A DNA stretch of 64,000 bases from an uncultured Planctomycetales bacterium (GCA_964545575.1 CAZJFL010000001.1:221812-285811), one strand, 5' to 3'; counted from the stretch's first letter, positions 21,001 to 48,000 are shown. Notes: generated by a model not told the origin, from the letters alone. Numbers and translations are program-made.

Positions 21001-24000
21001 ATGCTGCCGCCACAAATTCATAAAGCTCATCGTCCTTGGCAAATTTTTTACCTCTGATTACATTTAAGTTGGCGATAAGTGACTCCAGCTCCTCTGAAAG
21101 CTTATAGCGCAACGCAAACGGGTTCCGCGCCATAAAAGGACGGTCTTCGTTGGCCCTGAACCTCCCCATCACCCAAGACGGATTATCATCTTCATGCTTA
21201 GGGACAACCCGATTCATCTGCTGAAGCGCCTGCGCAGTAAATCCATCCTTATCTATACGCGAAAGTATTTCTCGGATTTTACCTTCCTCTACTTGCATGT
21301 TTTCGGCCACTGCCTTTATATGCGCCTGCGCAGACGGCTGCCGCTTACGCCGTGCGTGTGCACTCTCCCGCCTTATGCGTAATCCTAAAACCGTGCCTAC
21401 TGTGGCCAGCGCGCCGAGGCCAAGAATCAATTCCTGCGTCGCGCTTAAATCTATGCCGCAATATAAAACCAGCGTCACCAACCCCAAGCCCAACAGCCCC
21501 CTGCCGCTGCCGGGCAGCCGGCTCCGGATTTCGGCTAGCACATCTTTTGCTTCAGACGCCTCGCCCTCGCCGCGGGAATTGCCGTTGTCGCGGGAGATGG
21601 GATAAGGCTTATTTCCGTTATCGTTAGACACATTATTCTTTATTAGGTCATGTAAATACCAAAATAAATTAAAAGCGGCATCCGCAAAGAAAAGATACGC
21701 CACCAGAGGCATACTTTTAATTAAAGTGGCTACGCCTAAGGCGGCTGGCAATAGAATTGTGGCTAATCTCATTAAAGTTATCGAAAGCGCTTTCTCTTCA
21801 GCGAAAATAAAAATTGGCAATGCTCCGGGCCCTTTGGGTGGCCTTCGATTATTAAGAAGCCATAGGATAATAGTAATAGCTATGCTTAAGCCTGATAGCG
21901 AACTCATAAATAAATAATTTTTATCCGTAATTCCTATAAGATAACGCGCTACAATAGGCGGCAAGGCTATTCCCGACAGAATAATTAATGGAATTATAAA
22001 GGCGTACTTATGCCTGCTTATAAAGTTCTTGAGCCTTGAGGCAAGAGAAGGCGTAAGCGCTGCCTTCTCCTGCTTAGTGAGCGAGATTTGGCTTTGCGAT
22101 GAGAAGATTTCTGGCTTTCTCTCGGATGAACTCGGCTGCCTCGTTGCTGACTTCAACCCAGTTGCCAGCGCTCGTCCTGCCGCAGACTTTGCCGTCGGGC
22201 AGAATGAAGAAGTCATACTCATAGGACCAGTGGTCGTATTTGGCAGACGCCCATAACCCGCCTTTAATAGGAGTGACTCTACAAACCTCAAGATTCTGGA
22301 AGTTACACATCGGACACCTCCTTTTGTTTGTCTTGCGGCTAATAATTCTCTATCACTCTTAAGCAGCGCCTGATGGTCGGCGAAACTGTGGATATAGAAT
22401 ACTGCCGTGGCTATCAGCGGCAGAAAAGCCGACGCTTTATCTATACTGCCCAATATGTAGGCTGCCGCAAGAGATACTATCGACATGATAAAACTCACCA
22501 GCGGCCCGGCGCGTAAAGATTTCCTTGCCAGTAAATGTCCGAATTCATGGATGCCCCAGCCAACCAGTGAAATAATCAAGGAGGCCACAACGGAAAATGC
22601 CAGCCAGACCTGCCAGAGAGCGGCATATTTATTTCCCGGGCCAAGGCAGATAAAGAGCGTGCCGATTACCGCCCCCGCCAGCCACCCGCCCAAGAGGTAT
22701 TTCCAGTTCAGCTGCGGCTTAAGCGCCTCGTCCTCGCCGCGGTAGGCGGTATATTTATCCGCTACAGCAGAAAGGTATTCTGCAACATGCGCACCTACCG
22801 GATACCGCCCGCTTACTTCTATGGGCCATTTTACGGTCAAAAGGAACGCACAATCTTTAGTAGGACTGTAATTGCGTACGGTATAATAATTCCCCTGCCC
22901 CTTAAAGATAATCAAATCTGCCTGCTGCCAAGCGCGGAAAAATTCCGGAGAAATACGCGCTAAATCAGTGCCTAAGGCAATAGTGCCGGTGCCAATAATT
23001 TTTAAGCCAGCAAAATCCCGGCCAAAAATTTTCCGGATGCCTTCATCTGCCAACAGCCCTGCCAAATCTTCTCTTGTCGCATCATTAGAAGCGGGAAGCG
23101 ATTTCCCTGCAAAAGTTACCTTATGGCCAAGATTAAGCAGCTCGTTTATCAACGCTAAATCAAAAACGTCTTCGCCTACGTTATCGACTACGTACACAAT
23201 ATTCATCTGCTCGCGGAGCAATCTTTCTTTTAATTTTTCCGTATCATTCTTTTTCCAAAAATCAGCCGCGGCAAAATCACTTTCTATAATTTTCTCTACT
23301 AAAGAGAAGCCATCGGAAAGGAGCGCTTCGCGTATACGCGGCTCTGATAAATCTAAAATATTTCCGATTACGCACAAACGTAATGCCGCTTCCAAACGAT
23401 CTGGCGCCTTATTAATCAAAGTTAGCGCCTTGCCTAAAAGTGAGAATGCGGCAGTACGGATACCTTGTTTATACTGCCAGTCGGGATCAGCGAATTCCAC
23501 GGCAATGCGTATAATCTCTAAATCTACCTCTAAGACTTCATAGCTGGTCCAATCTTTTATCCGCGGCATTGCTAAGAATGTTTTGATGGCAGAGGCAAAT
23601 TTCTCCCTTACCTTTTCGTCAGGAACCGCCCTTTCCAAAAGCCTAAGATCGGTTTCACGACGCCGGTTGATTAAGTTAGTGGCAGAATCGCTACCTGCGA
23701 GCATATCTCTTATAAATGTACTGCCGTAATGATATTCGCTTGTCGGATGAGCTATCGCATTTAGCACATAGAGCTTGCTGCGGTCAAAGTATCTAATGAC
23801 ATTTTCTACGAACTCTTCAGGGCTAATTTTTCCCGCTAAAAAGCTCCTTCTCAATAATAGCGCGCTATCTTCAAAATCTTCCCGCAACAGGGCATTAACA
23901 TCTACCGGTGTCAGTAATAAAATGGCTTTGGATACCACCCAGCGCAAAGGATCAAGGTTTAACGCTGCTATATCAATACCATATTGGGCGCAAATACTAG

Positions 24001-27000
24001 ACACCCTCCGCGAAAGCTGGGCGTGTTCAGAATTATCTATATTGATAGTCCTGCTAAAATTATCCAGAACTGCCATGCGATTTTCTCCATCCGGCAGGAA
24101 TTGCAAACATTCTCTGGCGATATCATCTTCGTGTTCTTCCAGTAAATAGAAATAAAGGTTGCGGATTCCTTCCTCCGTATCCCTGATCGCCTCGCCATTA
24201 TCATCGCTTAGGCCTTTAACGATGTGGCTGATGAGCTCATGATACAGGATTTCGATTTGTTTGGCTTCGGGAAGGCTAAAGAAATACGGATGGAAATATA
24301 CGGTCTTGGAGGCAATATTGCATACGGCGACGTGGACTTTGTCGCCTACAGTAAAGTAAGGTTCGAAGTTAGTGACAATCAGCTGCCAGTCAGATAACTC
24401 CGGCGGCGCGCGGCCAAAAAACTGCTCCAGCAATTCTAAGGCCTTCCTCATCATATCTTCATCCCGGCTTCCTAATCTGGAGCCTTTAAGCGATGGAACG
24501 CGGAAACCTTCTCCCCGCGCCGCATACCAGAGATTAGGACGGAAGTTACGCTGCCGTTCTAGAAAATCCCGGGGCACTTCTAGCGGATGGGCGTTGGGTT
24601 CATCGGCATCCTTTACTTCTTTATTAATGACTACCCCTGAATCTTTCGTTACTGTACCAACTACGCCCCCGACTTTTCTTGCCAAAACAACCTGACCACC
24701 CTGCGCTGCTAAATCCTCGGCAGCCTCTGTTATATTTCTTCTTGCCACTCTTAAGTCTTTTGCGTTCCTGGTATAGCGCATTACCTGGCCCTCTTCATCG
24801 ATGGACTGGCCTGTTTCATCTACCATATCTTCTAAATCATCAATGGCATTACGCAACGCCTCTTTATCATGTGCCACTGCCAACAGGTATTGCGCCAGGC
24901 TTAAGCCTTTAATCCTGGCGATAGATGCAGAAATCCAGGGAGCGCTCAAGCCCACAGACTGCCTGTCACCCTCTACTAACTCTAATCTGACGTAACCACA
25001 CTGATATTGGCGCAGCCTGGCGAAACTTGCGCTCAAGCTGGCAAGGGAATTTATGAATTCCTGCTTTTCTTTGTCCCCGTAAGTATCAAGATCCAAAGCC
25101 GCTAGACCGCAGGCAGCCAGATGTATTCTCTTTAACACAGCCTTTTCTGCGTCAGAAAGGCGCTCATAAATCCCAAAAAGCTGTCTTCTATATTCCATCT
25201 TGTAGCAGGAAGCATCATTAGCTGCTCCGCCCCGCGCTCTAAATTCACCTTCGCTATAGATAAGACAACGCTGCATATCCATATTTCCGTAATGCTGGGG
25301 TTTATTCTCATCATTATCCTCGAGCAGTTGCGCAGTGGCATTACTGACGCCTAATTTGCTCAGCCGCCTATTTAACTCATCCCTGTAGCGAGAAACCTGC
25401 ACCCTAGAAAGATTCCCCTGATAATACAGGGTGAGCCGGTCGATATCGCAACCTACCATCCATAAGCCCAGATTAAACGAGCAAAGCATCGAGCTTATCT
25501 CGCTGATCCTCGCCCCGGTCTCGCTTTCTAATTTCTGCATAAAATCTTTTAAGGCAGCTATGATCGCCTCTGTGCCTTCGGGAAATCCGTATTCGCTCTG
25601 CGCTACTACATCACCGTTATCTACCGACCCGCCGTTGTCGCGGGAGCCGTTGTTAGAATCACTATCCCGGCGTTCTAACGAAGCGATGTAATCTAGCTTT
25701 CTCTGTATCTTGCCTGCCAAAGATGGCTGGAGCCTTACTACTTCTACCCAGTCCGCCCTGGTCTCGCTAAATTTTCCTAAGATAGCATGGGCATTACCGC
25801 GATTATAAAGTGCCTCAATATCTTCAGGATCTATTTTAAGTGCTGAGCTAAACCAATTGACGGCTTCACTAAACTCGCGCGCTTGCGCATAGATAATCCC
25901 GGTATTCACATGGGCATCGAGATTCTGCTGGTCCAATGCAATCGTCTGGGAATAATCGGAAAGGGCTTCCTTGGTATAGCCATTATCTAAATAGCTTAGC
26001 CCCCGGTTAAAGTATACGTTTGGATTTTGTGGATCAAACCCTAAAGCCCGGTTAAAGCAATTTAAGGCATTCTTAAAATCTCCTGCCTTAGAATATCTGA
26101 CACCCATTTTATCTAACACAGTGCAAATTAGGCCATCTTTATCCATTAACCTGATACGCCGATGCATATCTGTGACTCTGCCTAAATTAGAAAGATACTG
26201 ACTGCCAGACTCAGCCTTAAACTCATCTTCTAAGACAAAAATATGGCTTACTTTATGATATGCTAAATCTACCAACGCCTTCATATTGTTAGCAAGATTA
26301 AGTAATATGGCTACATGCGAAACCCGCTTGCCCCATATGTTTACGGTAATACTGATGGGGATTACCGTTAAGCCGACCGCTTTTGCGATGACAAAGAAAA
26401 GCTGGGTGAACCCTACGCAATCAGCCTTCCTCTGCTCAACTATATCTTCAAGATCAAACGCGCTTGCTTCTTCCATATCGGATTCTATTGCGGGATTAAG
26501 GGTATCGAAAATCTTTGCTGCGACCTTCACTTCCGCGCGAACTTTCCTTTCTTCGTTGCCACTTTGCCTTACATCCTCAAGCAAACCTTTAAGCTCCAAA
26601 ATATCTATCCCTAAGCTATCTAAAAACTCTCCTATGCTCTCGGATACCCTCTGGGGATTATCTATGTAACTTAACTCCTCAAGCTGAGCACGAAGTAATT
26701 TTTGCGCTCTGACCCTTGCTGTATCATCTAAAGAGCCGCCGTTGTCCACCGAGCCGGCGCTATCGCGGGCAGAACATGCCAATAAGGCTGCTCCCACCAA
26801 TGCCGCATCTACCATTTCTTTTACTTTTGGAATCTCATCGGCTAATATCACAACAAAATCATAGCTTTTATCTGTAAGTTCTTTTTGCAGTGCGGGCAAG
26901 GCATACCGGCGCGCCGGCTTACTTAACAGCCACCCTCCCAAAATAAATATGCTTGTTCCTTTCACGTCCTGCCAGAACTGAGCTTCTAAGCGAGGCTCTT

Positions 27001-30000
27001 TGACTACTCCTTTTCTGGGTTCTCCCTGCACGCCTCCTTCATAAGCCATAATCATAGTCCTTGCAATGGCTTCTCCCGCTTTTTGATAATAACCCCGTGC
27101 TATATCTCTTGCTTCCAAGTCTTCGCTTTCCGTCAACTCAGATATAAATTCTCCGGTTAACGCCTCAGCGCCAAATTTATGGAATAAATATTCGTTCTTC
27201 TTTGCTTGATATTCAAATCCTTTACCAGTTGCCAAATCTTCCGGTAGTAAGCATCCCGGGATTACCCTACCGCCTTCGCCTTTTTCTAAGATTATATCGA
27301 AGAACTGTTGCGGGCCCGAGATAGGTATTATTTGGCCATTCCTGATAATAAAAGCTCCTGCGCCAAAGCCGCTACCCGGAATAAATCCGGAAATTTTTGC
27401 GCCTTCCTTAACTACTTTTCCTATTTGTGTAAGGCTCTCTTTATAGACTAAAAGGCAATGCGCCATAGCTAAAACATGCGCCACTCCATCATTATTAACT
27501 ACCGCACGCCATTCAGAATTTGTTATCCTAGATAATTTTTTGGATAACTCCTGCGCTAATGTAAAATTCTCCAAGTCCGGCACATTAGGACTCGTTCCAT
27601 GGTAAGGCACGCCTTCTTCCAGCCAAGCCCCGGGGGCAGATACGCCTATTGTTTTTATCAAAGGGTAATTGTATCTCTCTCTAATCTCTGAAAGGCCGGC
27701 CCGTAAAATCGTCACGATTTCTTCTAAGGTAGCTTCTATATCAGGGACTTCTTTTCCCCCTACAGTTTTTGTGGGGCTCTTTATAATTTTCGGGTCAAAA
27801 AGAAGCTCGGGAACGCCGATAATTCTTCCGTTAATTATTGACGCTTTTACAAATGCTACCCTTGCGTGAGTTCCTCCTATATCAATTACAGGGATTATTT
27901 TTGTTGCGATATCCGCCAATGTTGTAAACTCGATATTTAATCTATGTTCAGTATAATCTAAGATGGCCTCGCTTTCCCGGATATCTTCCCACCCCAATTT
28001 AAATATTCTTCTTTCTCCCAATGCCTCAAAAAACTTCTGGCTTACGATAATATATAATTTTGCTGCATCGCCAATGGGGGCGCCGATCCAATACCTAGCA
28101 ACGCGGCTGCCTTTCTTATAAATAAAACCGAGGATGTGCGAGCCAGCTAAAGTCTTACTGTAACATTCTAGGGTATTAAATTCTTCTCCGGCATCATTGC
28201 TATTTCCTGTGGCTTCATATTCGAGCGATGTTTTATCCCCGTCATCCATAAGGGTAAATGTAAAGTGCGCTTCTATAGCTGGACTAAATTTTTTGTTTCT
28301 GAAGTGGCCAACGTATTCAAAAGACACCGCACCCTCACTCTTTATCGCCACATCTTTACCATCTTCAGAATCCCAATTGCTACCCAAAGGAATAAAACGG
28401 TATCCGTCATATCTGCTATGCCTACGCATAATCTCTTCTTGATGATCTTTGTCTATCGGGTTTCTCTTCCCCTCCGCGCCGAAGGCGGTATCGCAGGAAC
28501 CGCCGTTGTCCACCGAGCCGCCGGTATCGCGGGAGGACCCCGTCCTTAAATAGGCCTTATTTACATCCTGCACCCAGATAATATCGGCTTCCTTATTTAT
28601 AAATCCACGGAGATCCTGAAACTGGAATTGCTCCGAGGTAAATTCATTTATGACTTCGTCCACAGTTTTTCCTCTGGCTAATTCTTTGGCTAATTTGCGC
28701 TCAAGCCTGACCTTAGAATCCTCAAAGGTTATGGCTATCTTCAGGTCCAATAATTCTGTGATTCTCCGGTCTTCGGCTAATTTAAAAGTTCCGGAAATAA
28801 TAAATACATCTAGGTCCATAGCTATACTTCTACCTTCCATCTCAAAAGGACTTCTTTGATTAACTTTTATTAAAAGGTCCCTTATAATAGCTAAAAATGT
28901 TCTGTATTGGGGATCCTGAGGACCTATAAAAGCATCGAAGACTTCGGAACCTATATTTACGGATACCGCCTTGATACCGGCGGCATTCAAAGAAGAATCT
29001 AAATGGTCTGTTAATGTCTTTTTGCCGGAACACGGAAGACCGAATATTCCGATGATTAAAGGCCTCTTTGTGAGCTTCGGTATTAAATCCAATAACATCG
29101 CGATGAAATGCTCATCCTGCTGATCTTCGGACCCACCGTTGTCCACGGCGCCGCCGTTGTCCACCGAGCCGGCGTTGCCGCGGGTCATGAATAATTCTAA
29201 TCTCAAATCATATTTCCAAACCGCCTCTTTCATAACCCCGAAGAATTTAAAGGCAGCCTTAAATATGCCTCTTAAGTCAGTAGGATTCTTCAGGAAAACA
29301 GACAGTTGCGGATTAGCAAATAAAAGATACATTGGCTTACCAGTAGCTATCTTTAATTCAGGAATCTCTGTGGCGGGTTCAGCAAATCTTATCACTGCAG
29401 GATTACCATATCTGGGATTAAACTGTATTGTAATCTTGCCTTTCTCATTCCTTATAATATGGTATGCGTAGCCCCTGCGTGACTCTATTTCGCTTGAATC
29501 AGTCAAGACCTCGGGAGATTCAGTAATGCCTTCTTTGCCTCCGACCTCGCGGCAAATCCAGTTAGCTATCACCAAAGGCGCGTTGCCTCTATTGATTACA
29601 CGATGGGAATAATTAGGATTGATCATTACCTTTTCCCCCTGCTTGGCAAAGGTAATGATGGCTTCAAACCGGCAGGTTTCCGGGTTAATTCCCTGCTGAA
29701 TGTAAATAGCCTCACCATACCAGACCTCACATACCTCAGGATAGATATCTCCCTTTACAGAAATTGGATTTTGGTGCCCTCTAGTCATGATAAACTCAGG
29801 ATCCAGCTCCTTATTGATTACCCCGGGCAGCAGGACGATAAGATCAAATCTTATATTATTCTTCTTAATAGCCCCTCTATCGGATTTCAGGCCTACGTCG
29901 CGGTAGCCATAATAAACCACTCTGTCCCGCTCCTGCTTTGCTACTTGGGGCTCAGCGATGCTGTAGGCAATATCTTTAAGCGTCCGGCTCCATTTACCCT

Positions 30001-33000
30001 CAGAGGCAACCTCTTCGCCAAGTGCGATTTCGCCGGTGGCCAAATCAAGGGTTACCGGCAGGCCGGCAAAACCGGAAAGGTCAACCGCCTTGCTGGCCGA
30101 CCCGCCGTTGTCCACCGAGCCGCCTTGACCAGCTTGCAATTGCGCTCTTATTTTATCTGTTTTAAGCCCGCCCTTTAGCGGCCTTCTGGCTTGGTGACCT
30201 AAATCCGCAAAGGCACACGGCACGATCAGGCTCTCGTCTAAATCAAAGATCCTGGCTATACTAAGGCCGATTTGATATCTGCTGAGCTGTTGCGGCCCGC
30301 TGATATGATAAATGCCGGATGCGTTCTGCGCGATCAACCGCTCTATCGCATCGGCTAAACACCCCACCGCTATAGGATTGGTGTACATATCGTCAGCCAG
30401 CCTGATCTGGCGGCCCTGGCGACAAGCGCCGGAGACTTGTGCCGTAAACTTTGAGCCTAAGCCCAAGATCAGGGTCGGCCTGATAATCAAATAATTAGAG
30501 CGCGTATAGCGGATGGATTTTTCCGCATCTAATTTTATTCTACCGTACTCATTCACAGGAATAGTAACATCACTTTCTGAATAAGGCCCGTTTTCTCCGT
30601 CAAAAACATAATCTGAAGAGATGAATACAAGCTTGGCGCCGATAAATTTACTTATTTCAGAGATATTCTCTGTGCCTAATACTTGTATTTGAAATACTTC
30701 TTGGGGGTGTTCCTCGCAATAATCTATATCTACCATGGAAGCTGCGTGAATAACCACCTTAGGCCGTAATTTGGTTAATAAAGCGCGCACTGCCTTTGCA
30801 TCTCTTACGTCCAAGAAATAACCATTGTCAACTTTATTTCGATAGTATGTCCCGCTGGTCTTATAACCGGCTGCGGATAATTTACGCATCAGTTCCTTGC
30901 CAAGAAACCCTGACGCACCGATCACTAATATATCTACAGCTTTAGCCGTCTCTACCTCCTGCTTCAAGACGCCTTGAGATTCCAGGAATTCAGCAAGCAA
31001 CATAGTGCCGATAGCATAATATGCCAAAGAGTGCCTGCCGGTAGGATCCTGGCTGAGGCGGTTTACAGCATCGGCAATAAAATGCGTGGCTTCGGCAAAA
31101 AGCGCTTTGGCTAACCAGTCCGGCTCATCTTTTAAGAGTTTATTCAGCGTAGAATGATGAGCCAACAGCCCGGGCAAAGCAGCTCTGGCTTTCAGGAAAT
31201 TCGCAACTGCAGACTCGCTATCCCAGTATCCAAGCTCCATACGGAAATCCTCGTCTTCCTGCCAAATTCCTAATTCAAAGCGGTTATTGCGCACCAATTC
31301 CAATAAGATTGAATGCAGTATCTTGCCCAGCTCATAAGTAATATCTATCTGCGTAGGTATGCTGCGAGGTAAATCTACTCCGCGGATGTCTATCAGGCGT
31401 AAGGCTCCTCCTTCTGTCCTTAACACATTCCTTAATAATAAATCTCCGTGGGCGTAACGCGGGATAAAGCCCGGTTTTAATTTCTCTAATAACCCCGGCT
31501 GGGATTTCAAAAGAGCAAGCAGACGGGGTAAATTCGGATATTTTCTGCCATTGATATAAATATTTCTTGCCGCGAATAAATCCTCAAATAAATACGAAAT
31601 ATCCCTGTATCGATTGTTTTGTATCGTAATTGCCCTGTCTTTTATCAGGCGGCTGTAGGTAGCGGTTGTCCTATCGGTAAAGAGGCCCAGGCGGTAATCC
31701 ATCCTCTTTAGATGAATCCTATCTACGTAATCTTGGGGAACTTCTAACCTGCCTTGAGAATAAACAAAATCGCAAAGTAAATCTAGAAGACCGGATATCG
31801 TCTCTAAAAACTCTTCTGCCGCGGTAGGCGGATGATTAAGAAAATAGAAAGGTAAAGGTTCTGCATTCTCGATATATTGAGATGTGTAAAATACATAGCC
31901 CTCGCCTTCAACATAATCATAAACTTCAGGAATCAAAACTTCCGCCTCAGTAGGTAAAGTTTCTTTTAATTCCTTCAATCTCTTGTATTGGGCTTTTAGC
32001 CACGCTACACCATTGGCGCCGATGCCTTCCCAGTCAGAATATTTTAATATTACTATTCTACCCTCGCCATCTCTTACCAGGAAGGTCGTGGCTGAACTTC
32101 CGCCGTTTCTGATAACGTCTAAAATTTCGTAATGCTGCGTAACCTCCGGAGGCAGGCGCTCAGATAAAGCGTTTCTATTTCTAAACCCGTGGTAGACGCT
32201 TCCACCGTTATCCACCGAGCCAGTGTTGTCCACTGAGCCGTCTGAAATAACCGGCTTTTCATTTCTCGCAGGCGCAAATATCGCTCTTAATCTCTCGATG
32301 GCCTCCTGAGGGCTTAATCCCTGATTATTATGCAAAACATACGTTCCGGATATAAAGATACCGGCGCCTTTTTTGATCGCCTCAATGATCGTTTCCCCAT
32401 TAATGCCACCCTGAACCATAACCGGCTTAAAGAACTCCCTTGCCCGTAGCTGGTCAATCTTAGCTAAAGCTTCTAACTCAGTAGTACCGCCTATCTTGGC
32501 AGTAGGTATTGCGGAAACTACTATGCGGTCAACTTCGGATAATATTTCTTCCGGAACCGCGCTTATCTGCTCATCCGGCTCAATCACTACGCCTGCTTTT
32601 ATGCCGAGGGATTTCAGGTAGCGAATTCTCCTTAAAAGCCTTGCCTTATCTCTTCCAAAGGCGTCAAACTGCAAGTTGATGCTTCTGACTATACCTGTTA
32701 CCGCAAATGCCCTCAGGTACTTCTTAGATGGCTGCCAAGATAAGAGATGCACATCAAAAGGAAAATCCACACCTGCCAAGCTCATCTTCTCGATTAACTG
32801 CGGATTAAATTGGGCGGTGTTATCGGGATATTCGGTATTAGCATTTTCTCTGCCGGTGCGCTCAAAATAGGCGTTGGAGCGGACATCAAAATGTATCCCA
32901 TCTGCACCTGCCTCCTGGAGTATAAGGGCGGCACCAATTAAAACCTCATCGCTTACTTTACCCAATACTGATAGTGGCACATAAATTTTATAATTTGACT

Positions 33001-36000
33001 GGCCGTAAGCATCGGTGACAACGGTTAAATCCGGCCGCACTGTTATTGTCTGCAGATAATGTATAAAGGAAGGAGTATTTATCCTCCAGAATACCTCCGC
33101 CACCCTATCAATAGGCGAATGCCGGGCATCGCGCGGCAGGCGGCGCAAAATGCCCACCGAGGGCTTAGCCAACATCAGGATCTTTAAATCAAAATACCGG
33201 CTATATTTTCTGGTCAAAAGGTAATTCCCTTCAATGATGACCACAGTGGAGCGGTCAATGGTAATTTTTTCTTTGTGCGTTAATCCACCTCCCTCATATT
33301 TATCATAAAGCTCAGTTAAATCCAGGGTTAGGCTTTCTTCTCTGCCAGCGTTAAATTGCCTTATTTTTCCCAGTGCTTCTTTTTCAAACTTCTCTGCCCT
33401 TAGCGAAATCTCGTTATCATTAAGGCTAAATCCCGTTGCCCCTATCCTGCTTAATTCCGCGTCTTGCCGGGCATATCTATTTTGGCGACTGTCAATAAAC
33501 CAGTCGCGGCTGATCACCACGGCTTTGCCGCCCGCTCTCCTGATTAATTCTGCAGCCTTTTCTGCGGCGGTGGTTTTAAAAGCCCCGGAGTTGCCGTCAA
33601 TGGCAACCACTAAAGCTCTTCCTTCTGGCTTTCTTGATAAAGCCGCGGTTATCGCGTTCACAATTCTGGCGATGTAATCAACCGGGCTGGTGACCACAGC
33701 ACTCAAACTGCTCACGCGCTGCTCATACTCTGCATCAAACCTATCTTGCTGCGCCTGGTAATTCTGCATGCAGTTTTTCTGATAAAAGCCCAGCGTCACC
33801 CACCCAATCGCCTCTTCAAAGAACTGCTGTAGTTGCGGGCCGGAATTCTCGTTGTCCAGCTCGATGTTTACGCCCCATTGCGCCTGTAAGCTTTGCTTCT
33901 TCAGTTTGGCTAAGAATGCACGGCACTTGGGGTCATCGATATTACCCAAAAATTCCTCTACTCCTTTTGCAGCCTTCAGTAGGACCCAGATATTGGCTAA
34001 TCTCTGCATCATCGTCAGTTCCCCAAAAGTATATTCCTCTCCCGGAACCGGAATATCGCGAATATACTTCCTGACAACTACAAAAGTCTCAAAGGCGCTT
34101 AACAGGCCGTCCTGAATCTGCTGGTGCTTCCAGTGCTGGCCATCCGGCTCCAGGACACAGGCGGTATCTAACCTAAGCAGTCTGCGGATCTCTTTTGCCC
34201 AATAGCGGCTGCAACCCAAGAACTGGGTATCTGAACCATAAACTAAAAGGTCAGCGTAAGTCTTATTGTAATCGGCAGCCAGGATTAAAAGACAGGCATA
34301 AACACAAGCAGCATTCTGCCTGACTTCCTCATAGGTAATACCTTTAAGCTCAGCCATTCTTCTAAGGAGCAAGTCAAATTTTCCCTGATTTAAACCGCCG
34401 CTTCTATAGGCATAACCGTAATCTAAGGTACCGCCCTGAAAACCGGCCCTGTATTCTTCGCCGGAAGAAGCAGCAGTTCTTAAGCTGGCTAATATTTCGC
34501 TCACGCCCTTGCCTTGGGAGCGCTTAGCCTTAAAATAAGGCACGAAGCCGCTGAGCACCGTATCTTTACTTACCCAGACGCCCGGCTCATCGGCAAAATT
34601 GACGCCCATGCGGTTTCCGGCAATGGCAATGCCGACATTAAACATAGCTACCAGCTGGCCGATTTCTTCTTTTGCGGGCAAGACTACTTCTATCACCGAG
34701 AAACCGCTCTGACGCAATCTCTCAATTCTGGCCTGATAGCGATTATCTTGGGGCCCTAGTTTAAAATGCACAAAGAAATTCCGCTGGGGCTTATAGTAAG
34801 CCGGCTCTAAATCTTCTTCCTCGCTTAAAATAACTGGGATAACACCTCTCCTGGTTCCCTGGGAATCTTTTTTACCTAAGGACTCGGCAGTAATCTGGCC
34901 AAAGAAAGTAGATAAAGCCTTTAATTCCTCGGGCAACACATAAGTAATATGGGTTTTGCCGTGCGTTTCCATAAAGGCAATGAGCAAGCCAAAGAATAAT
35001 CCGGGGTTAATGACAGTGTTGTCTTCGCCTAATATCTTGGGATTTTGGCAGATAGACATCATCTTTGCTCCGGATTCTGTTACTGCTTCTAACAGCCAAT
35101 CGCCTGCAAAAGCTGCAGGGACCAGGCCTGGCTCGGCAAAGAATGAAGCATAGCGGCCGCCTGTGGCTTGGTCATGGTCAATGACAGTGCGATAACATCT
35201 TTCCGGCTTTTCTGTGGTGCGCAAGACATCTTTGGCATCGCCGTCTTTCTCTTTAGGATCAGCCACAGCCACGAAGTGGCTGCCGGTTTTTGCTTTGTCG
35301 CCGCCGTAGAGATCCAGTAATTTCTGATAAAAATAATCTTTCAGTTTGGTGATCTCTACAGTCGTCCAGGACTTACTGATCACAAAGAAAACCGTATGCT
35401 CAAGGTCAAGCTTCTCTTCTAATTCCCGAATGACCTGCGGCTCAACCGAACCTAAGATATAAATATTTTGCAGGCCAAAGATGCCTTTTAAAGCCACCAT
35501 CCCATTACCGGAACCGCCAATACCTAAAATTACTCCTGTGGTCAGACCGCCTGCTTTTAATTCAGCGGAGAGCTTTGTTAATTCAGGGATCCTTGCTCCC
35601 TGGATACGGCTTAAGATATCCACCCAGCCTAAACGACTCTTATTGTCTATCCAGTCCTTCGTTACTGTATCCCACCAGGTAAGTTTTCCGGAGAATAACT
35701 TGGGAACCAAGCCTTCTCTTTCTGCCTGCGTTACATAATCTCTTAGGTCAACGCTCTCTTTATCGGATAAACGCAGTTTAACCTCTAAAAGCGTAGAGAC
35801 TACTGCGCTTAATCCGCCGTTATCATGGCTACTGGCTAAAGCTGTCCCTTCAGCTAATCTTTGTAATTGAGCGGCACAAGATGAGCAGAAACCTGCTGCA
35901 GTGCGGTCCAATTCATCTGCGCTATGGCTTAAATGCATTACGCAAGAAGGAACATTGCAATGCAGGCGTAATTCGGTAGGAATAATGAATAAGCCACCGA

Positions 36001-39000
36001 TAAGATGCCCTACTTCGTGAATAGCATTTTTGAGGTTACGGCTAATGAAGGTATCTCTATCGGGATGCTGGAACCTGTATGCAGAATTGATAATGATATT
36101 TTTGGAGGGGTTGGTGCGGCCAAAAAGATAATTATATGCCTTACCGTCTTTACACAGGCCGGTAATATCTGCTTCGGTAATAACAAGAGTGGGGATTTTC
36201 TGTCTGGCGCCTTTAAAGAAATAAGGAAGTACAAATTGCTTGCGCTTTGCATCATAATAACCACCGATATTACTGACGATATCTTCAAATTTTACAGGAG
36301 AATCAATTATGACGTTTATATTGAAGGGGAATGCCTCGGTTATTCCTTTGGCAATCAACTGGGCTAATTCTATAACGGTATCGTGCCCTTGTTCTGTCGC
36401 GAAAGCAGGAATAATCTTTAAGAAAGGCGGAGCGCGGGAGGAATAAGGCAACCTCTCTACAGAAGCCATAATACCGCTTTCATCTCTTGGCGCTACGCCG
36501 CTTGGCTCCAGAGGCACATCCGCAAATAAGCCACCGTTGTCGCAAGAGCCGCCGTTATCAAAGGCACCTTCTAAATTAAACCCGCGCGTAAACCTGCGGA
36601 TAGATTCTTTGATCCTATCGATTACGTATTGCTGGGGATCTTTTACTCCGGATTCCCTGGCCTGAGCGTAAAGCTCCTGGCGCGCGGCTCTCACTCTCTC
36701 ATTATTCTGCACATAACGTCCGCAGCCTAAAACAACCTCCCGAAGCTGCGCTTCTCTTAAGCTGGCGATATCCTCAACCCCGGGGAACCATTTCCTCCAT
36801 CTTTCTGTTCCGCATAAAGCCTCTTCTACGATAGCTAAAAATCCACCTTTACCTGTTAGTTGTTCCAACTCCTCTAAGGCCAAGTATTCTTGGCGGGAAA
36901 ACTCCGGCCCTACATTTGCACAGGCTATCCCTGCCCCGGGCACCAGCGCCAGTTGCTCTTCTTGCATATAGTCAGAATTATGCTGTTTAAGATGTAACCC
37001 GTACCTAGCTGCCAAGTTAAAAAGCCTGACTACGCCCTCGGTATGGAATGTACCGAGCTGGTGGGAATCCAACACCTGGGTACCGGTATCAATAACCAGG
37101 TAAACTATGTTCGCCCAAACATAGTCCAACCCTTTCTCATCCAGTTTCTCCCGCAATAACCTTATATACTCTCCTACTGCATCCGGAGAATCCAGGACAC
37201 TGCCGGAGATGTCAGAACCGACCTCGTAAACAACCGGCGGCATATTCTGCTCTAACCGGTAAGCCTCACAGTCAGAGATTAAATCAACGGCCCTTTCCAC
37301 CATCTCGCCGATACTTACCAACGAGCCTTTCTTCTCGTAATCTAAAGTTACGTCTATATGGAGAATATCAAAGCCGGCATCTAAATCAGCGCGGTAGGTG
37401 CGCTTAGCATTTGCCATAGCTTGGCCTAAAGATAATAATTTATCTTGAGGCCTCTGCCAAGGGCCACCGTGGTCTCGCTCAATGAATACGCGCCCGCTAT
37501 AACCTACCTCAGAGGCGATTCTGCGGATTATAGTTACCAACTCTGCCTGGTTCCACCCCGTATATGAGCCTTCCACGTCAACCTGCCTTGGAGTAGCGAT
37601 AAATATAGGAATACAACCGTCTTCTTTTGCGACTTCAAGATAAGCCCTGATAATATCTTCGGACATCGGACAGACAGCAAGCAGCGTCATTTTCTTGCCC
37701 CTCTTGGCTTCCTGGCTTTTTACCTGTGCCCACATCCTAACAGATGCGCTCAACTGCGCATATTTGTCTAAAAATTCATTGACCAATATTACACTACGGA
37801 TATAAAATGCTTTTGCCCTTCTCTGGTCATGAATCCGCGTTAAAACATACCCGGCGAAATTTAAAGCGCAAATCAATTGCATTCTAAGCTGCCAATAGGG
37901 CTCGGTCTGGGAAAGATATGCTTTTACGCCTGACTTTGCTAAAATATCCTGGAACCTCTCCTCTAGCGCCTCGAACGCTTCCCATAGATAGCTCTCCTTG
38001 GCAAAGGAGAAATCAACGACGGTATTATCGCCTTGACGTATAGCTAAAGTATAAAGGCCTTTCTCCAATAGATAAAATTTACCGAATATGCCTTCTGCCA
38101 GCTTGCTTAAGTCATAGACTAAATCTCCCCGCTCATCCCCTCTGGGGTCAACAAATAAGAACTTGCTTCCTTCGGTCAGAATATTATGTAAACCCAGGTC
38201 GCCGTGATTAATACACAATGATAATGGATTAAGCAAAAGGAATAACTCCGGATTATCCTCCCATTCTCTTAATATGCGGGGAAGATTCCTGTACTTAGTG
38301 CCATTTATAATTAAATATTCGGACTGTAATAGAGATTGAAGATACGGCGCCCGCCTTAAGGCTTCTTCCAACCTGCTTCCCACCTTATCTAAGGTTATCC
38401 CCTTGAGATAACCGGCAGGGGCTTTAGCCTTGCTATCCGATACAATATCTCTCATATATGCGCTTAAGACATCCTGGATAATGCCACATGTTTCTTCCAT
38501 TGCCAGAGAGCCTTGCGCTATTCTATCGGCTAAGCTCTTAGCCTGCGAGTAATAAGGCATCTCATAATAAACATTCCCCTGCTCCAAGGAATAACTTAAC
38601 ACCCGCGGGAAATACCCTTGGAGCCTATCAGGTAGGTCCAAAATCCATCTTATCTCTCTTATCAAATCCTCTTCTGCGAATTCATACGCCTCTTTGCGAA
38701 CTATATATTTACCCTCTCTGTTTATAAGTAAAACTCTAGAGCAGGATTTACGCTCTATCACTCTTGCTATCTCTTTACGGGATACCCGGCGGGATGGGCC
38801 TACATAAGCAGAGCCGAATCTTTGAATTTCGGCTACTTTTTGTTTAAGGTCAGGGGCTTTTGAAAATATGCTTCTGGCGTTGAAAGAATCCGCCCCTGCC
38901 TCTACGACTCTTTTATAAGTATCTTCGGTAATGCCTCCGTCTATTTCTATGCTTACCCGGATATTCCTTTGCTGTATTAATCTTTTTAAGCTGCGTATCT

Positions 39001-42000
39001 TCTCTGTCATCCCGGGAATAAATGTGCGCCCTCCGCCTCCGGGCACAACGCACATAATCATTACCGTCATCATTCTGGCATCGAAATACCGCCAGAGGCT
39101 ATCTAAAGCAGAAATCGGGGTTTCCGGATTAAGAGAAACGCCCAGATATAAATCTCTCTGTTTGATATAATCGATCATTGCTTCCGCCTCGCCCAAAGAA
39201 GAAAAAGCCTCATAAGGCAATATAACTTTGTCTCTTCCGGGCTTTAACCCGGCGTTTATTAATCTATCTATCAAAGCTTTATCCGGATTTACTGCCCAAA
39301 GGTGCACATCCAGCGGCAACCCTATGCTGGATATTATCCTGATATCATCTGCGCAGTCCAAGATATCGCCTTGAGTCAACTTCCCGTCAAAATGGTCTAC
39401 GTGCACAGAATCCATGCCACACTCTTTAACCTGCTCAATTTCCTTTCTTAAACCGCTCTTATCCGCGTAGAGTATAGAATATGCCAGTGACAGGGAGCCG
39501 CCCTTACCGAGAAGCTTGACTGAAGCCCGCTTGATCTTATAGGCCTGGTAAGCTTTAGCAAAGTTATGGACCTTGGCCTGCCAGGGGTCTTTGCGGACGA
39601 TATCCGTAGTATCCAAGAAATCACCGGCAATAAGGAGGCTGAGCACTTCGTCTTTATCTAGTAAGGGGTTGATATCTTTGACAAATCTTTCAAAGGCAGC
39701 CTCGTCCGGCTGCAGTTGGGATATAGAATAAAGGGCGCTATGAAGCCTTATTACTTCTATCAAAACATCCCTGCTTGATAAATCTTTAGCTAATTCTGGG
39801 TTTTCTCTGAGCATTGCCGTTGATGCTCCGGCATGGTTTGGATACAGCTCGAGCATTAGTCCCTCTTCGGCAACTATCTGCGGCTTGATTCTGGACTTTC
39901 CGATATCATGCAGCAGGATGAAGAATTCGAAGAATAACCTGTTCCGCGGGTTAAATAATATGCTACGGTATTCCTGAGGTATGGATTGAAGGGCAGTGGC
40001 GGTATTTAGAGTATCGAGCATAACCCGGAGGTGGTCTATAAGTCTGGGCCCTTCGGTGTGTAATGGCAAAGGTAAATTAGGTATATCAAAACAATTATGG
40101 TATTCTTGAGACAAGCGGGTACAAATAAGAGCTCCTATATCGGTAGAACCACTCCTTACCTCTTCGCTGAAAGCAATGTCAAAGGCACCGCCGTTGTCCA
40201 CCGAGCCACCAATGAGTCCATCCAAATATTTATCCCATTTTGAAAAATCTATTCTTTCATACTGCCGCATCTTCCCGAAGAATAAGGTGGCTATCCTCTT
40301 AAGCGCTTCTTCGCTATAGCCCTCTGCGCGGCAGATTATCTTTGGTTCGGTTCCCGAGGCCCGCGCCAATGCCCAGCCATCGCTAAAAACAATCCTTAGG
40401 CCGTCGGTCTCATCGATATTATAATCTAATCTGCGGAAATACTCTTTGACCTCGCTGATAATGCGCTTCTTTTCTTCATTGGCATTATCGCCGGTCACGG
40501 TAAGACGAAACTCTCTGGTAGAAGGATAATGCGGTATTTCGTAAGCCGCAGCCTGGACGGTTGTGCCCTCTTTCCTTACCTTAGCCACAAAGCGCAATAA
40601 CTTAGCTGCGGTATAAATGCCGTCATCAATATTATGATTATCCGCAAAGAAGAAGTGGCCGGACTGCTCTCCGCCCATAATCGCGTTAACCTCTCCCATC
40701 TTCCTCTTAATATGGGAGAACCCTGTTTTCCATCTGATGGGCTTGCCACCGGCGTCTTTTACCACTTTTACTACCGCTTCCGTGCATTTGGCATCAAAAA
40801 CAACCGCCCTGCCGGGATTCTCTGCTAAGATGTCCCGGCTTAACATTGCTAAAATAATATCTCCGGAAACATCCTGCGCCATATTATCCACCACTACCAA
40901 CCTGTCAGCATCCCCGTCAAAAGCTAGGCCGATATCTTCTCCGCCTTCTCTTACCGCGTTAATCAGGCACTGCATATTTTCGGCTAATGTAGGATCGGGA
41001 GAATTATTTACACAATTCGGGAAATTGCCGTCGGCTACCCCGTTTATCAATCGCACTTGAGCGCCCAAAGCGGAAAATATTTTTGCTAAAGGCAGGGTGG
41101 CGGCGACGCCATTTAAAACATCAATCACGATTTTTAACCCGCTTAAATTCCCTGCTGCCTGAGATAATAAATCCGCATAGGCAGAAACCATATCTTTTTC
41201 TTCTATCTGGCCTGTGCCAGAGATAAAGCATCCGCTTTCTGCGATTTCGCGGATTCTCTTTAATTGCTCCCTACTGGTATTGACTATGCCTATGGTCGGT
41301 TTAAATCCGCCGTAATGGGCGGGATTATGACTTGAAGTAACCATAATGCCGGCATCAGCATTGTATAAAGGGACGGAATAAGAGAGCATCCCTGTAGAAA
41401 CAGTACCTAAATCAATGACTTTGACTCCGCTGGCTACTAATGCCTTAACCGTATCCTGATGTATTCTGGGTGAAGTAAGGCGGACATCATGCCCTACTGT
41501 TATCACTAATTTTCTCTTATTTAAAGCAGCAGCAGTAAAAGTAGCGAATGCTCTGGCTATGCGCGCGACCACATCCGTAGTCAATGTCTCCTCGGCATGG
41601 GCAGCGCGGATATCATTTTCCACAAAGATTCCGGCATCGACAGGCGCATATCCTAAATCTACCCATTGGCCGTCCGAACTCTCTATATTAGCCAATACTT
41701 GCTCTACTATACCTAAATACTCCTCTGCTGCCTTAGGCCCCTTATCCTTGGCGTTGATGAATAATCTGGAAGGTTTCTCCTCAGCAATATCCGGTCCGAC
41801 ATTAACCGTTGAATCCACCGCTAAAGCAGCTTCGCGGTCATTGCCTTGCGTATCAAACGAATCTCCGAAGAAGATAAAAGATTCTCTGCTTAGACCCAAA
41901 ATCTCTTCCGCTTTCCTAACCGCAAAGCCCTTATGTATTCCCGCCGGCAATATGTCAATAGCAGTCATCCCGGCAATTCTAATTTCCACCTCTATGCCTT

Positions 42001-45000: not shown

Positions 45001-48000
45001 AACGCAGTTCGGCCTCGGAAATATAAAGAAATACTATAATTCTACTTAAAATTTTATGAATACGGTGTCTTTCCCCATCTAGAGGTAATACCCCGGAAGG
45101 TCCAGGCCTAAAGCCTGTCTGTCCTTTTAATATCTGGCCAGTCAGTTCTGTATATTTCTGCAGTAGTCTTTGATAAACAACTTCCAGTAATGCTTTAGTT
45201 TCAAGTGAAATATCATGCCTGCTTAGAACGGTAGCATATGCCGGAGGAGAAAGTCTTTCTAAATCGGTAAGAATACTTTCATAAGTTTCGTAATCCATAC
45301 TGTTACTATCAATAATTGTAACTAGTCTCTTTTGAGCAATTTCTTCTATGGAGCCGCCGTTACCTACGGATTCCTCCTCAGAATGTTTGCTAAGATTAAA
45401 TTTAGATAAAACCTCTATGCCGGTATTAAAGGATAATTCTGTATAGCGAACAACCTGTAACTCATCCGCACTTAATAAACCAAAAGGCTGCTGATACCGG
45501 GCGATGATTTCTTTTAACCTTGCCAATTCTTCGATACTGAATGGCTGAGCAAAATAACCGGCAACAATGTGAGGTGGGTATTTACCCGGTATCGCCCACT
45601 GCTGTCTGCGGTTAGAAATTGGATCTTTTCCATCTGCAGCGATAATAGACTTGATCTCCCAAAAGATTCCTATATCTATATCCCAATTAACCCCGCCTAC
45701 TTCGATATCAAAAACAGGAGTTATAATTTCTTTCCCGCTAGAAACACGATCTTTCGGAATATAACCTTGTATAGTAAGATGCAATTTATCCGGATCAACT
45801 AACAGAATCTTTCTACCAAACTCCCGGGACAATTCTTCCTGAAGTTCTACCATCTTCTTTCTTGTCAAGCCATCAGGAACCATATACACTTCGCTCAAGG
45901 CAGAAGTGTTATCGCGCTCTTCTTCTGGCTTAATATTCCCCGCTGCATCAATAAAACGCCGCGAGCGGGTTAAATCGGCTTCTTGAATTTCTTTTAGAAG
46001 GCCGCAAACCACAGCTCCTTTTCCCTCAGGGCCTGTATCATACGAACCGCCGTTGTCTACGGAGCCGCGGGAAATGATTTCTTCTTGCAATAAGAAATCT
46101 TTTACCTTCATTGGATCAAGGCCGCCCAAAGTCTCAATCGCAGATTCTCCGACTACCGCCTTGAGGTTCTTTTTGGCTACACCTACCAATTCCAAGATTT
46201 TAACCATATCTTCGGAAAAGCCCATCTCTCTCAAAGCCACTATTTCTTCATTTGTGGCATAGACAAATCTCTCCCACTTTCCTGCTTCCGACCTTTCGTG
46301 ATAAAGACGTATATCGTGTTCTGCCCAGCTTAAAAGCCAAAGAGCTAACTGTCCAGCATCGGTATTAAGATTAATCCCATGCTGGATGCAGAATTCCGGG
46401 TTCTCAAGTAAAAATTTAACATAGCGGTTCCGGTAGATAAATTTGCTACGGTAGGCAAAAACACCCGGCCTGATTTCTGTTCTAATTAAGTCACTACGAC
46501 TTAGCTCCTTCGGCTGGCCCTGAGGATCTTCCAATACCGGCATAAGCAGTGTAGCGTAAGACTCATAAACTTTGGTTTCCACCTCTATCTTCGTATAACG
46601 CACATTGCCATTACCTTTTATAAGTACGCTATAGATTTTACCGTCCGAACCAACATATTGAGGCCTACCTTCGCTATCCAATACGGAATCAGGCATCAAT
46701 TTAATCTGGCGCGGAGCTTTCTGGTCAAATCCGTATTTTGTTAGCTTACGTTCTCTAATATAATCGTCTATGGCCTTGCTGTATTTTGTCTCATTTATCA
46801 GAAGATCGGTAACTATATCTGACAGACGTAAACTAGAATGCTGTTTTAGGACTTGCTCAATAGCCTTGATATAATCCGAGAAACTATAATTATTGCTTTC
46901 TTCGGTATTTACGTTATTGAAAAACCAAATCTTTCTATGCGCCTTGCTTCTTTGCACCACCTCTGCCACGCCCGGAGTACCAAACTGAGGAAGTATGCTG
47001 GAATATGTGCTTCCTGGCCCGATAATAATGAGAGAAATTTTTTCGTGGGCAAGCCACATGGCTAATTCCGGGTTCATGCCAGGTATAGGGGCATTCGGCT
47101 CTAATTCGCTCTTTACTACCCGAAAGTCAACCAGTTTGTTTTCGCGTAATTGATCCATAAACTTCTGGCCGTATACTCCTATTTTACGGCGTTCGTCGGC
47201 AGGGCGCTTATCGGTGGGGTCAGGTATTAAACAGGCATCTATATCACTGCCGACTTTCTCCCTAAAGGATTCAATTGTTTTTTTGTCGATAGGCCTTTCA
47301 TAAATTGCTTCCACGGTGGCAGATTCTAAGGCAACAGGCACAACGTGGAAACGCATATCTACTCCCCAGGCCCTTTCTAACATATGCATCGCTACTTTTG
47401 CCTGGTCTGCATCTGTGCTGCCGCTATTTTTAACGATATATTTTGAATCAATGCAGGCGCCTAATTCATGGAAGAGAGCCAAGATATTGAGGTTGCGGAT
47501 ACTCTTGCCATGGAAGAAATCAATTCTTTCCTCTACCGGCTTATTTTTATTTCTCTTATCGAACTGCGTATAATAAGCTTTGGCTCTGCTTGAGTAAGCC
47601 CGAGAGTAAGCAGTAAATTCATAGTCGATAATCCTGGCCATATTCAGTTGTTCAATAAGAAAAGGTATAAATTCTTTTTCTCTGATCAAACCTCCTATCT
47701 TATTCATAACTACATGTATTACTGTTTCTTCCATAGTGGGATAATCCTTACCCGGAGTTTCACCGGTTTTTTTATCTTTTTTATCCAAAGCGCTAAAGTT
47801 AGAATATATCTTACGGCACATAAATTCATCGGGCAAGAACCCGTCGCATACCGCAGCAGCTTCGTCGCCTAAACCGATAGTCCTGCCTTTGCCGGGACGA
47901 AGCTCTAATTCCTGCACTCCTGTCCTTCCGCCGTTATCGGTAATGGACTGGCTTAATACCACCGCGCATCCCGAATCAAGCAATGCCGGCATATTCACGG

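Follow-up and report, generated by a model that had tools for sequence, protein, structure and literature searches.

A recurrent S-x-D-N-G-G motif at enzyme junctions within a probable giant multi-enzyme gene of the Omnitrophota type

Introduction

When a reading frame stays open over tens of kilobases and carries short repeats that all share one phase, is it a single gene, or could the frame conceal assembly errors between repeat copies? We address this question for 64,000 nucleotides (nt) of DNA deposited as an uncultured Planctomycetales bacterium (GCA_964545575.1, CAZJFL010000001.1:221812-285811), a stretch referred to here as the window, whose minus strand encodes part of a very large multi-enzyme protein with about 10 sites of a short linker motif between its modules. 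A sequence-only reading of this stretch had cautioned that module order, module number and even the giant size require long-read confirmation before interpretation. We find it probable that this DNA comes from the middle of one genuine giant gene of the Omnitrophota 'multi-enzyme metabolic cluster' (Archaeovorin-like) class, with enzymes tethered between transmembrane clusters, and we describe within it a junction motif that is conserved down to its codons.

Giant open reading frames (ORFs) of this class have been shown to be genuine with long reads (West-Roberts et al. 2023, bioRxiv 10.1101/2023.11.21.568195; Nielsen & Lui 2026, bioRxiv 10.64898/2026.06.07.730766). Archaeovorins carry many transmembrane helices together with PGM/PMM, GPI, PPDK, NUDIX, HAD and TPR domains, and most of them also carry a divergent SecA DEAD-like domain and HEAT repeats (West-Roberts et al. 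2023). The 'multi-enzyme metabolic cluster' class reaches 147,155 amino acids (aa) in complete Nanopore genomes, with 80% sequence singletons (Nielsen & Lui 2026).

Results

One open frame spans the whole window

Read on the minus strand, the window is a single stop-free frame of 21,333 codons that runs past both ends, so that residue i of the product lies at window position 64000-3(i-1). Frame 0 of the reverse complement contains no stop, whereas its two alternative frames contain 1,612 and 1,637, and the ORFs contained fully within the window are just four, all small and on the plus strand. Since the frame continues past both edges, the complete gene must exceed 64 kb. Domains called with Pfam (E<=0.01) and NCBIfam sit in this frame from end to end, which can be summarized as one feature:

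1..64000, minus strand: giant multi-enzyme gene fragment, 0 stops, Pfam domains along its full length

In-frame repeats had been placed at 21561-46076 inside a giant ORF; the outermost copies do match these coordinates, while the ORF itself proves larger, spanning the whole window. Upstream of the linker zone, ~5,976 codons (~18 kb) are open and repeat-free, as are ~7,186 codons (~21.6 kb) downstream of it; with this much open frame outside the zone, the suggestion that the giant size hinges on the linker repeats falls away.

An in-phase motif recurs between modules

The linkers are built around a 20-mer, GGCTCGGTGGACAACGGCGG on the coding strand, that encodes the peptide GSVDNGG. It is present in 5 exact copies and in 8 when up to 3 mismatches are allowed, every one of them on the minus strand; 100 shuffles predict 0.00. 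About 10 linker sites lie between positions 21560 and 46072, each with 1-3 S-x-D-N-G-G hexapeptide units of 18 nt. The D-N-G-G core is invariant across them, and the units are hydrophilic (rich in Gly, Asn, Asp and Ser). The DNGG peptide occurs 13 times against 0.21 expected, making it by far the strongest over-represented peptide of the protein. As the sequence-only reading had stated, all linker repeats share one phase: each of the 13 GAYAAYGGNGG sites belongs to frame 0 on the coding strand, the other frames and the other strand having none, and all distances among linker copies are divisible by 3. This common phase follows trivially from one peptide being encoded repeatedly within one ORF. 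The sites, with the outermost copies (the degenerate SRDNGNSRGEGE at 21560-21625 and SRGSVDNGGSYD at 46037-46072) as boundaries, are as follows:

46037..46072, minus strand: L1, SRGSVDNGGSYD (aa 5977-5988), just upstream of a module common to other giant proteins
40178..40210, minus strand: L2, GGSVDNGGAFD (aa 7931-7941), after the PGM/PMM module
36530..36568, minus strand: L3, GAFDNGGSCDNGG (aa 9145-9157), at the GatZ/KbaZ-like / archaemetzincin junction
35813..35833, minus strand: L3b, degenerate SSHDNGG (aa 9390-9396), immediately after the M54 module
32198..32242, minus strand: L4, DGSVDNTGSVDNGGS (aa 10587-10601), at the junction of the second ribulose-phosphate 3-epimerase (RPE-2) and the second kinase
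30098..30124, minus strand: L5, GGSVDNGGS (aa 11293-11301), at the RmlD / cupin-type GPI junction
29129..29173, minus strand: L6, AGSVDNGGAVDNGGS (aa 11610-11624), 18-nt unit x 2.3
28496..28537, minus strand: L7, SSRDTGGSVDNGGS (aa 11822-11835), after the uridine-kinase/PRK-like module
26732..26773, minus strand: L8, SARDSAGSVDNGGS (aa 12410-12423)
25610..25660, minus strand: L9, DSNNGSRDNGGSVDNGD (aa 12781-12797), after the TPR module
21560..21625, minus strand: L10, degenerate NDNGNKPYPISRDNGNSRGEGE (aa 14126-14147), within a loop flanked by hydrophobic segments, the lower boundary of the linker zone

All of these ~10 S-x-D-N-G-G sites lie between Pfam domains. Linkers start 4-40 aa past the C-terminal ends of Pfam matches (PGM_PMM_IV, RPE, RmlD, PRK, TPR), ahead of the next module, and L6 forms a tandem array with an 18-nt period and 2.3 copies (Tandem Repeats Finder).

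Unrelated enzyme modules lie between transmembrane clusters

About 25 different families are found in the one frame, each once or twice (Pfam, NCBIfam). They comprise ROK, NUDIX, CofD/YvcK-like, HAD-IIB/PMM-like and PGM/PMM domains I-IV; ribulose-phosphate 3-epimerase (twice), an APH-like kinase (twice), GatZ/KbaZ-like, archaemetzincin M54 and a SIS-type PGI; PRK/uridine-kinase-like (twice), RmlD, cupin-type GPI, TPR, an ARMT1-type damage-control phosphatase and Fic; and an enolase C-terminal fragment and PPDK/PEP-utilising enzyme. Most of these modules are sugar-phosphate enzymes. Around the linkers they are arranged as follows:

43952-44377, minus strand: upstream hydrophobic cluster (Kyte-Doolittle), the counterpart of the cluster at 21374..22696
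40286..43873, minus strand: CofD/YvcK-like, HAD-IIB/PMM-like and PGM/PMM I-IV (aa 6710-7905; Pfam; NCBIfam PgmG/GlmM-like, E 2e-94, below equivalog cut-offs)
36650..39487, minus strand: RPE-1, APH-like kinase-1 and GatZ/KbaZ-like (aa 8172-9117)
35858..36355, minus strand: archaemetzincin (Peptidase_M54; aa 9216-9381), with intact HEVGH...CX4CXM...CXXC motifs
30137..35785, minus strand: PGI (SIS), PRK/uridine-kinase-like, RPE-2, kinase-2 and RmlD (aa 9406-11288)
28568..29935, minus strand: cupin-type GPI and uridine-kinase/PRK-like (aa 11356-11811)
22826..26122, minus strand: TPR (aa 12627-12768) and ARMT1-like damage-control phosphatase (aa 13455-13725)
21374..22696, minus strand: cluster of ~9 hydrophobic, putative transmembrane segments (aa 13769-14209; Kyte-Doolittle), closing the soluble enzyme stretch

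A Kyte-Doolittle scan of the product gives 56 hydropathy peaks; some overlap, which leaves ~50 separate transmembrane candidates, and the majority fall into seven clusters. The ~7,000 residues from aa ~6683 to 13769 contain almost no hydrophobic segments; here ~15 unrelated modules stand head to tail, including nearly all modules from CofD/YvcK to ARMT1 and every canonical linker except L1. On the downstream side of the linker zone, a Fic domain (20924-21241, aa 14254-14359) and an isolated enolase C-terminal fragment (11417-11692, aa 17437-17528) are interspersed with the transmembrane clusters. Long stretches (aa 1-3900, 14400-17400 and 17600-20000) have no Pfam match, and sequence searches of the unannotated stretches against PDB gave just TPR, NUDIX and a second CofD-like match. 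Self-BLASTP of the 21,333-aa product detects one old duplicated block and one weakly similar pair (aa ~15833-17871), and otherwise almost no internal similarity.

This architecture agrees in most respects with Archaeovorins and multi-enzyme clusters. At no fewer than 21,333 codons, the ORF exceeds the length of at least 10,000 aa that marks the class; many Pfam families are present with none dominating, and those of sugar metabolism (PGM/PMM, ROK, PPDK, NUDIX, HAD, TPR, along with glucose-phosphate isomerase) recur here; numerous candidate transmembrane helices are indicated by the hydropathy scan; and the sequence is unique, with no close ortholog. Furthermore, the best module matches, at 41-63% identity, are large multi-enzyme proteins, several of them annotated as proteins of Candidatus Omnitrophota metagenome-assembled genomes (MAGs). 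The ORF differs from the known members in its recurrent junction motif, described in neither paper: a text match of West-Roberts et al. 2023 and Nielsen & Lui 2026 returned no mention of linkers, junction motifs or cleavage sites. It also differs in that the visible 21,333 aa give no Pfam match at E<=0.01 to SecA DEAD-like (PF07517) or HEAT; as the ORF extends past both ends, this absence applies to the visible part and not to the full protein. The class is already known and genuine, and the window ORF is a new, sequence-unique member of it.

In the arrangement we propose, transmembrane clusters would separate long soluble stretches that string together many enzymes, tethered at the membrane. 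Within these stretches, the S-x-D-N-G-G units are probably flexible spacers, thanks to which each module could fold and work on its own. The linker sequence is conserved so specifically that we infer a second probable role, that of a signal recognised at the junctions.

Short repeats, uniform codons and the assembly question

The reasoning that a mis-join between linker copies would keep the ORF open is valid, since every copy is in phase; indeed, an in-phase join leaves the frame intact, and the order of the modules is thus not proven by the openness of the frame. The accompanying premise that these repeats threaten short-read assembly did not survive an account of their length, their flanks and the surrounding codon usage. 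No exact repeat in the window exceeds 25 nt, a length reached by one pair, and no k-mer recurs from k=27 upwards. All exact repeats of at least 19 nt are linkers, five of which have an exact 20-mer in common. Extended similarity between linkers covers 26-59 nt at 60-96% identity, and the flanks are non-homologous on either side, so that any final k of at least 27, or any read of at least 100 nt, is enough to resolve the copies. A repeat that confounds assembly is longer than the assembler's k or comes near read or insert length, and the linkers do neither. Repeats shorter than k are invisible to a de Bruijn assembler, and longer ones usually break contigs instead of fusing them; the default k series of MEGAHIT and metaSPAdes finish at 141 and 55, respectively, and reads of 100-250 nt with assemblers ending at k=55-141 bridge 25-nt patches with unique anchors.

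Relative synonymous codon usage (RSCU) of each inter-linker segment correlates with that of the rest of the ORF at r 0.60-0.95, inside the size-matched null, as compared to r 0.10-0.41 with an unrelated giant gene. Such homogeneous codon usage argues against a cross-genome chimera, which we reject on this test. The spread of GC content at third codon positions (GC3) among inter-linker segments is modest (0.40-0.50). Along the entire ORF, GC3 is uneven, at 0.32 in codons 6001-6500 (44501-46000, just downstream of L1) and ~0.57-0.61 in codons 16001-18000 (10001-16000) vs ~0.49 overall; this heterogeneity could mean modules of differing origin or age.

Several points weigh against reading the region as one genuine, membrane-tethered gene of this class. 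Module order and number found no independent confirmation: no reads were found, word-indexed protein searches (aa 10950-12900, aa 5975-10974 and a linker concatemer) and exhaustive HMMER found no ortholog or second assembly, their matches being single-module, and no related locus was found in the genome-contig or metagenome-contig collections. The closest relative of the kinase module, protein P0023 of a Candidatus Omnitrophota MAG (63% identity), has different neighbour modules, so that module order is not conserved in the family and no cross-check is possible. Moreover, its 3,066-nt short-read contig (JAUYPM010000213.1, GCA_030697605.1; locus L016 1-30) starts inside G AAC GGC GGC ACT GAT AAC (GNGGTDN), and linker-like motifs may thus fragment short-read assemblies in relatives. 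The window holds no taxonomic marker gene. The transmembrane prediction is a simple, crude hydropathy scan made with no dedicated predictor. An AlphaFold2 model of RmlD-L5-GPI from a shallow multiple sequence alignment gives a confident RmlD fold and an L5 with predicted local distance difference test (pLDDT) values of 24-37 and no secondary structure; the second module, GPI, is itself poorly modelled, so linker disorder is weakly supported. Finally, a passive spacer alone leaves the invariant D-N-G-G core and the codon uniformity unexplained.

Exact 20-mer scans of both contig collections gave 14 single matches, several in GC-rich genomes and with no tblastn similarity, which appear to be chance. 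The linker concatemer retrieved just small proteins of low complexity, of the GSMDNRG type and at E>=0.007, which we consider irrelevant.

A hidden assembly chimera, in which joins at linker copies are assembler errors and order, number or continuity is artificial, would draw on the first of these points: the in-phase copies let a mis-join pass without a trace in the ORF, an exact 20-mer at five copies and 25 nt at two could branch a k=21 graph, no second source confirms the module order, and the contig of P0023 begins within a linker-like motif. We nonetheless judge it very unlikely. With no repeat of 27 nt or more and with unrelated flanks, reads of at least 100 nt and a final k of 29-141 bridge every copy, and repeats of this kind normally split contigs and do not join them. 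Codon usage is uniform over all junctions, the modules form a coherent set of sugar-phosphate enzymes, the frame stays open and free of repeats for ~18 kb and ~21.6 kb on the two sides of the linker zone, and the class is confirmed by high-fidelity (HiFi) and Oxford Nanopore (ONT) reads.

A GC-rich 20-mer identical at five sites in a window that is otherwise 46% GC might also recall a technical artefact, that is, an adapter, primer or amplification-chimera oligonucleotide gluing unrelated fragments. We consider this practically negligible: strand and frame are kept on both sides of each junction, which random joins would achieve with a chance of ~(1/6)^9; differences among copies look evolutionary (unit number, conservative substitutions); and codon usage is homogeneous across functionally coherent modules. 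Together, the preserved strand and frame, the copy variation and the codon usage exclude an adapter origin. The assembly caveat is therefore of little weight, as the repeats are too short and the class has already been confirmed with long reads.

Private junction motifs in giant relatives and possible cleavage

Short private motifs, differing in sequence, recur in several other giant proteins related to the window ORF, a number of which come from Omnitrophota MAGs. In P0020 (locus L015 223-18267), R[SA]E[VIL]R occurs 15 times vs 0.10 expected, with synonymous codons scrambled; this codon variation points to selection on the peptide. P0019 has 15 copies of xSLG vs 3.2 expected (5/5 tested copies lie between Pfam domains), and P0031 has 13 copies of DGG vs 1.9 expected. 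One module is common to the window ORF, P0019 and P0020, and in each of the three its own private motif precedes it at the equivalent position. Many other large relatives have no private motif, so the feature is recurrent and not universal.

The strict conservation at enzyme junctions suggests that the linkers could be recognition or cleavage sites. If the giant product were processed as a polyprotein, S-x-D-N-G-G units would be its cleavage sites (for example with a cut after the double glycine), and single enzymes or blocks of them would be freed from a membrane-anchored precursor, either by the archaemetzincin within the ORF or by a protease from another gene. We regard this as possible, though doubtful. 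It fits the same motif with its invariant core at ~10 junctions, the private motifs of P0020, P0019 and P0031, the viral-polyprotein-like placement of a private motif ahead of one homologous module in three proteins, and an intact M54 metalloprotease module within the ORF. Moreover, West-Roberts et al. (2023, bioRxiv 10.1101/2023.11.21.568195) explicitly pose as an open question if giant proteins of bacteria work as a single chain or undergo cleavage. Against it stand the many large relatives with no private motif and the possibility that codon-level identity reflects recent copying and not function.

Cleavage at known double-glycine (C39) leader sites was considered specifically and rejected. 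Although linkers share with C39 bacteriocin leaders a Gly-Gly followed by a small residue, they do not match the known consensus: the hydrophobic residues at -4, -7 and -12 and the E at -8 are missing, upstream positions being G/S/D/N or non-conserved, and the window has no C39 domain (PF03412, Pfam E<=0.01). Among the long proteins of Omnitrophota, C39 domains are reported to be frequent (Nielsen & Lui 2026, bioRxiv 10.64898/2026.06.07.730766).

The relatives offered further observations. P0043 contains PDG 8 times vs 0.5 expected. An ORF of at least 3,332 codons (L015 18272-28267) starts 4 nt after the 6,014-aa gene of P0020 on the same strand, and the pair is either tandem giant genes or a single gene that one stop codon, or a mistake in the assembly, has interrupted. 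The N-termini of P0001, P0019, P0020, P0022, P0030 and P0038 consist of a signal or anchor followed by a conserved domain with IQDAH...AQ.NI ... GGFH..G; the window ORF, as a fragment, excludes the protein's N-terminus. A TIKI/TraB-like protease domain was sought at the N-termini of P0001 and P0020, where P0001 alone gave a faint match to ChaN of the Tiki/ChaN superfamily (E 0.09), too weak to establish the domain.

Linker codons and the age of the junctions

The seven canonical copies use codons that differ sharply from the ORF background: Ser is TCG in 6/7 vs 8.5%, Asn is AAC in 7/7 vs 32%, Val is GTG in 6/7 vs 22% and Asp is GAC in 6/7 vs 29%. Variant copies hold the peptide through synonymous changes (TCC/GTA in L1; GAT/GGT/GGA in L4). 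The old duplicated block, which consists of RPE and the APH-like kinase, provides a comparison in time: its two copies (30953-32920 vs 37721-39487, aa ~10361-11016 vs ~8172-8760) share 23% identity (E 7e-21), and at the RPE/kinase junction the second copy has GSVDNTGSVDNGGS, while the first has only QRFGSAYVG and no canonical units. The near-identical codons indicate that copying or homogenisation of the linkers is recent in comparison with the ancient modules, and the linkers look younger than the modules they join.

Perhaps the motif is a DNA-level element, an 18-26-nt sequence that provides a short patch of homology through which modules are gained, lost or shuffled in frame, or that spreads by gene conversion or slippage, with the peptide as a tolerated by-product. 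Several features would suit this idea. Synonymous codons are uniform far past what the amino acids require; copies connect non-homologous modules, and were therefore not duplicated together with them; the older duplicate junction has no canonical units; L6 is a tandem 18-nt array; and kinase and other modules are ordered differently in relatives. We find it improbable overall. RecA-dependent recombination usually needs at least as much exact identity as these 20-25 nt, or more, to be efficient, the synonymous changes in L1 and L4 point to selection at the peptide level, the codons of the private motif in P0020 are scrambled, and the 20-mer was not found in any relative in two large collections.

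The module that follows L1 (45401-46036, aa ~5989-6200) is common to P0019-P0022. Its copies in P0019 and P0020 start with [SA]VDAYG[GD], similar to SVDNGGSY in the window, and the linker motif may derive from the native N-terminus of this module.

Other readings of the linker were tried and set aside. Nine RNA folds at linkers show no common structure (z-scores -3.7 to +0.5). Internal translation restart after linkers yields one candidate with a Shine-Dalgarno sequence plus start vs 1.4 expected. A Chi-like site is ruled out as copies are confined to ~25 kb, and N-glycosylation sequon and EF-hand/DxDxDG readings are ruled out as the spacing does not fit. RTX-type Ca-binding repeats are GGxGxDxUx nonapeptides in runs of at least 5; here the period is 6 aa with 1-3 units per site, and there is no RTX Pfam match.

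Discussion

Here we have described a 64-kb stretch that probably lies within one giant gene, in which unrelated enzymes are joined at ~10 places by a motif that is conserved at the level of codons, itself a new detail. Analogies are found in other systems as well. Viral polyproteins carry a recurrent protease motif at each junction, for example of the 3C/3CL Q|G type or the PLpro LxGG type; the window ORF resembles them in having a short, lineage-specific motif between unrelated modules and a protease module within the same ORF, and differs in its cellular host, its membrane-anchored protein and the hypothetical nature of both its cleavage and any pairing of protease and motif. Linkers of PKS/NRPS megasynthases and the Pro/Thr-rich linkers of cellulosomal scaffoldins are conserved in composition. 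They share with the present linkers a hydrophilic, probably flexible character and independently folding modules in fixed order; in contrast, the linkers described here repeat an exact 7-8-residue motif and join unrelated, free-standing metabolic enzymes with no assembly line.

At the level of the family, it is tentatively conceivable that giant multi-enzyme ORFs of Omnitrophota are polyproteins, each lineage with its private motif read by a co-evolving protease that would release or remodel enzyme modules of a precursor anchored in the membrane; if true, the motif would mark cleavage sites that are predictable from sequence alone. The junction motif, together with its differing forms in unrelated giant relatives, provides concrete sites at which to ask whether such a product is one protein or many. 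It also offers a means of delimiting modules, from primary sequence, where Pfam gives no match.

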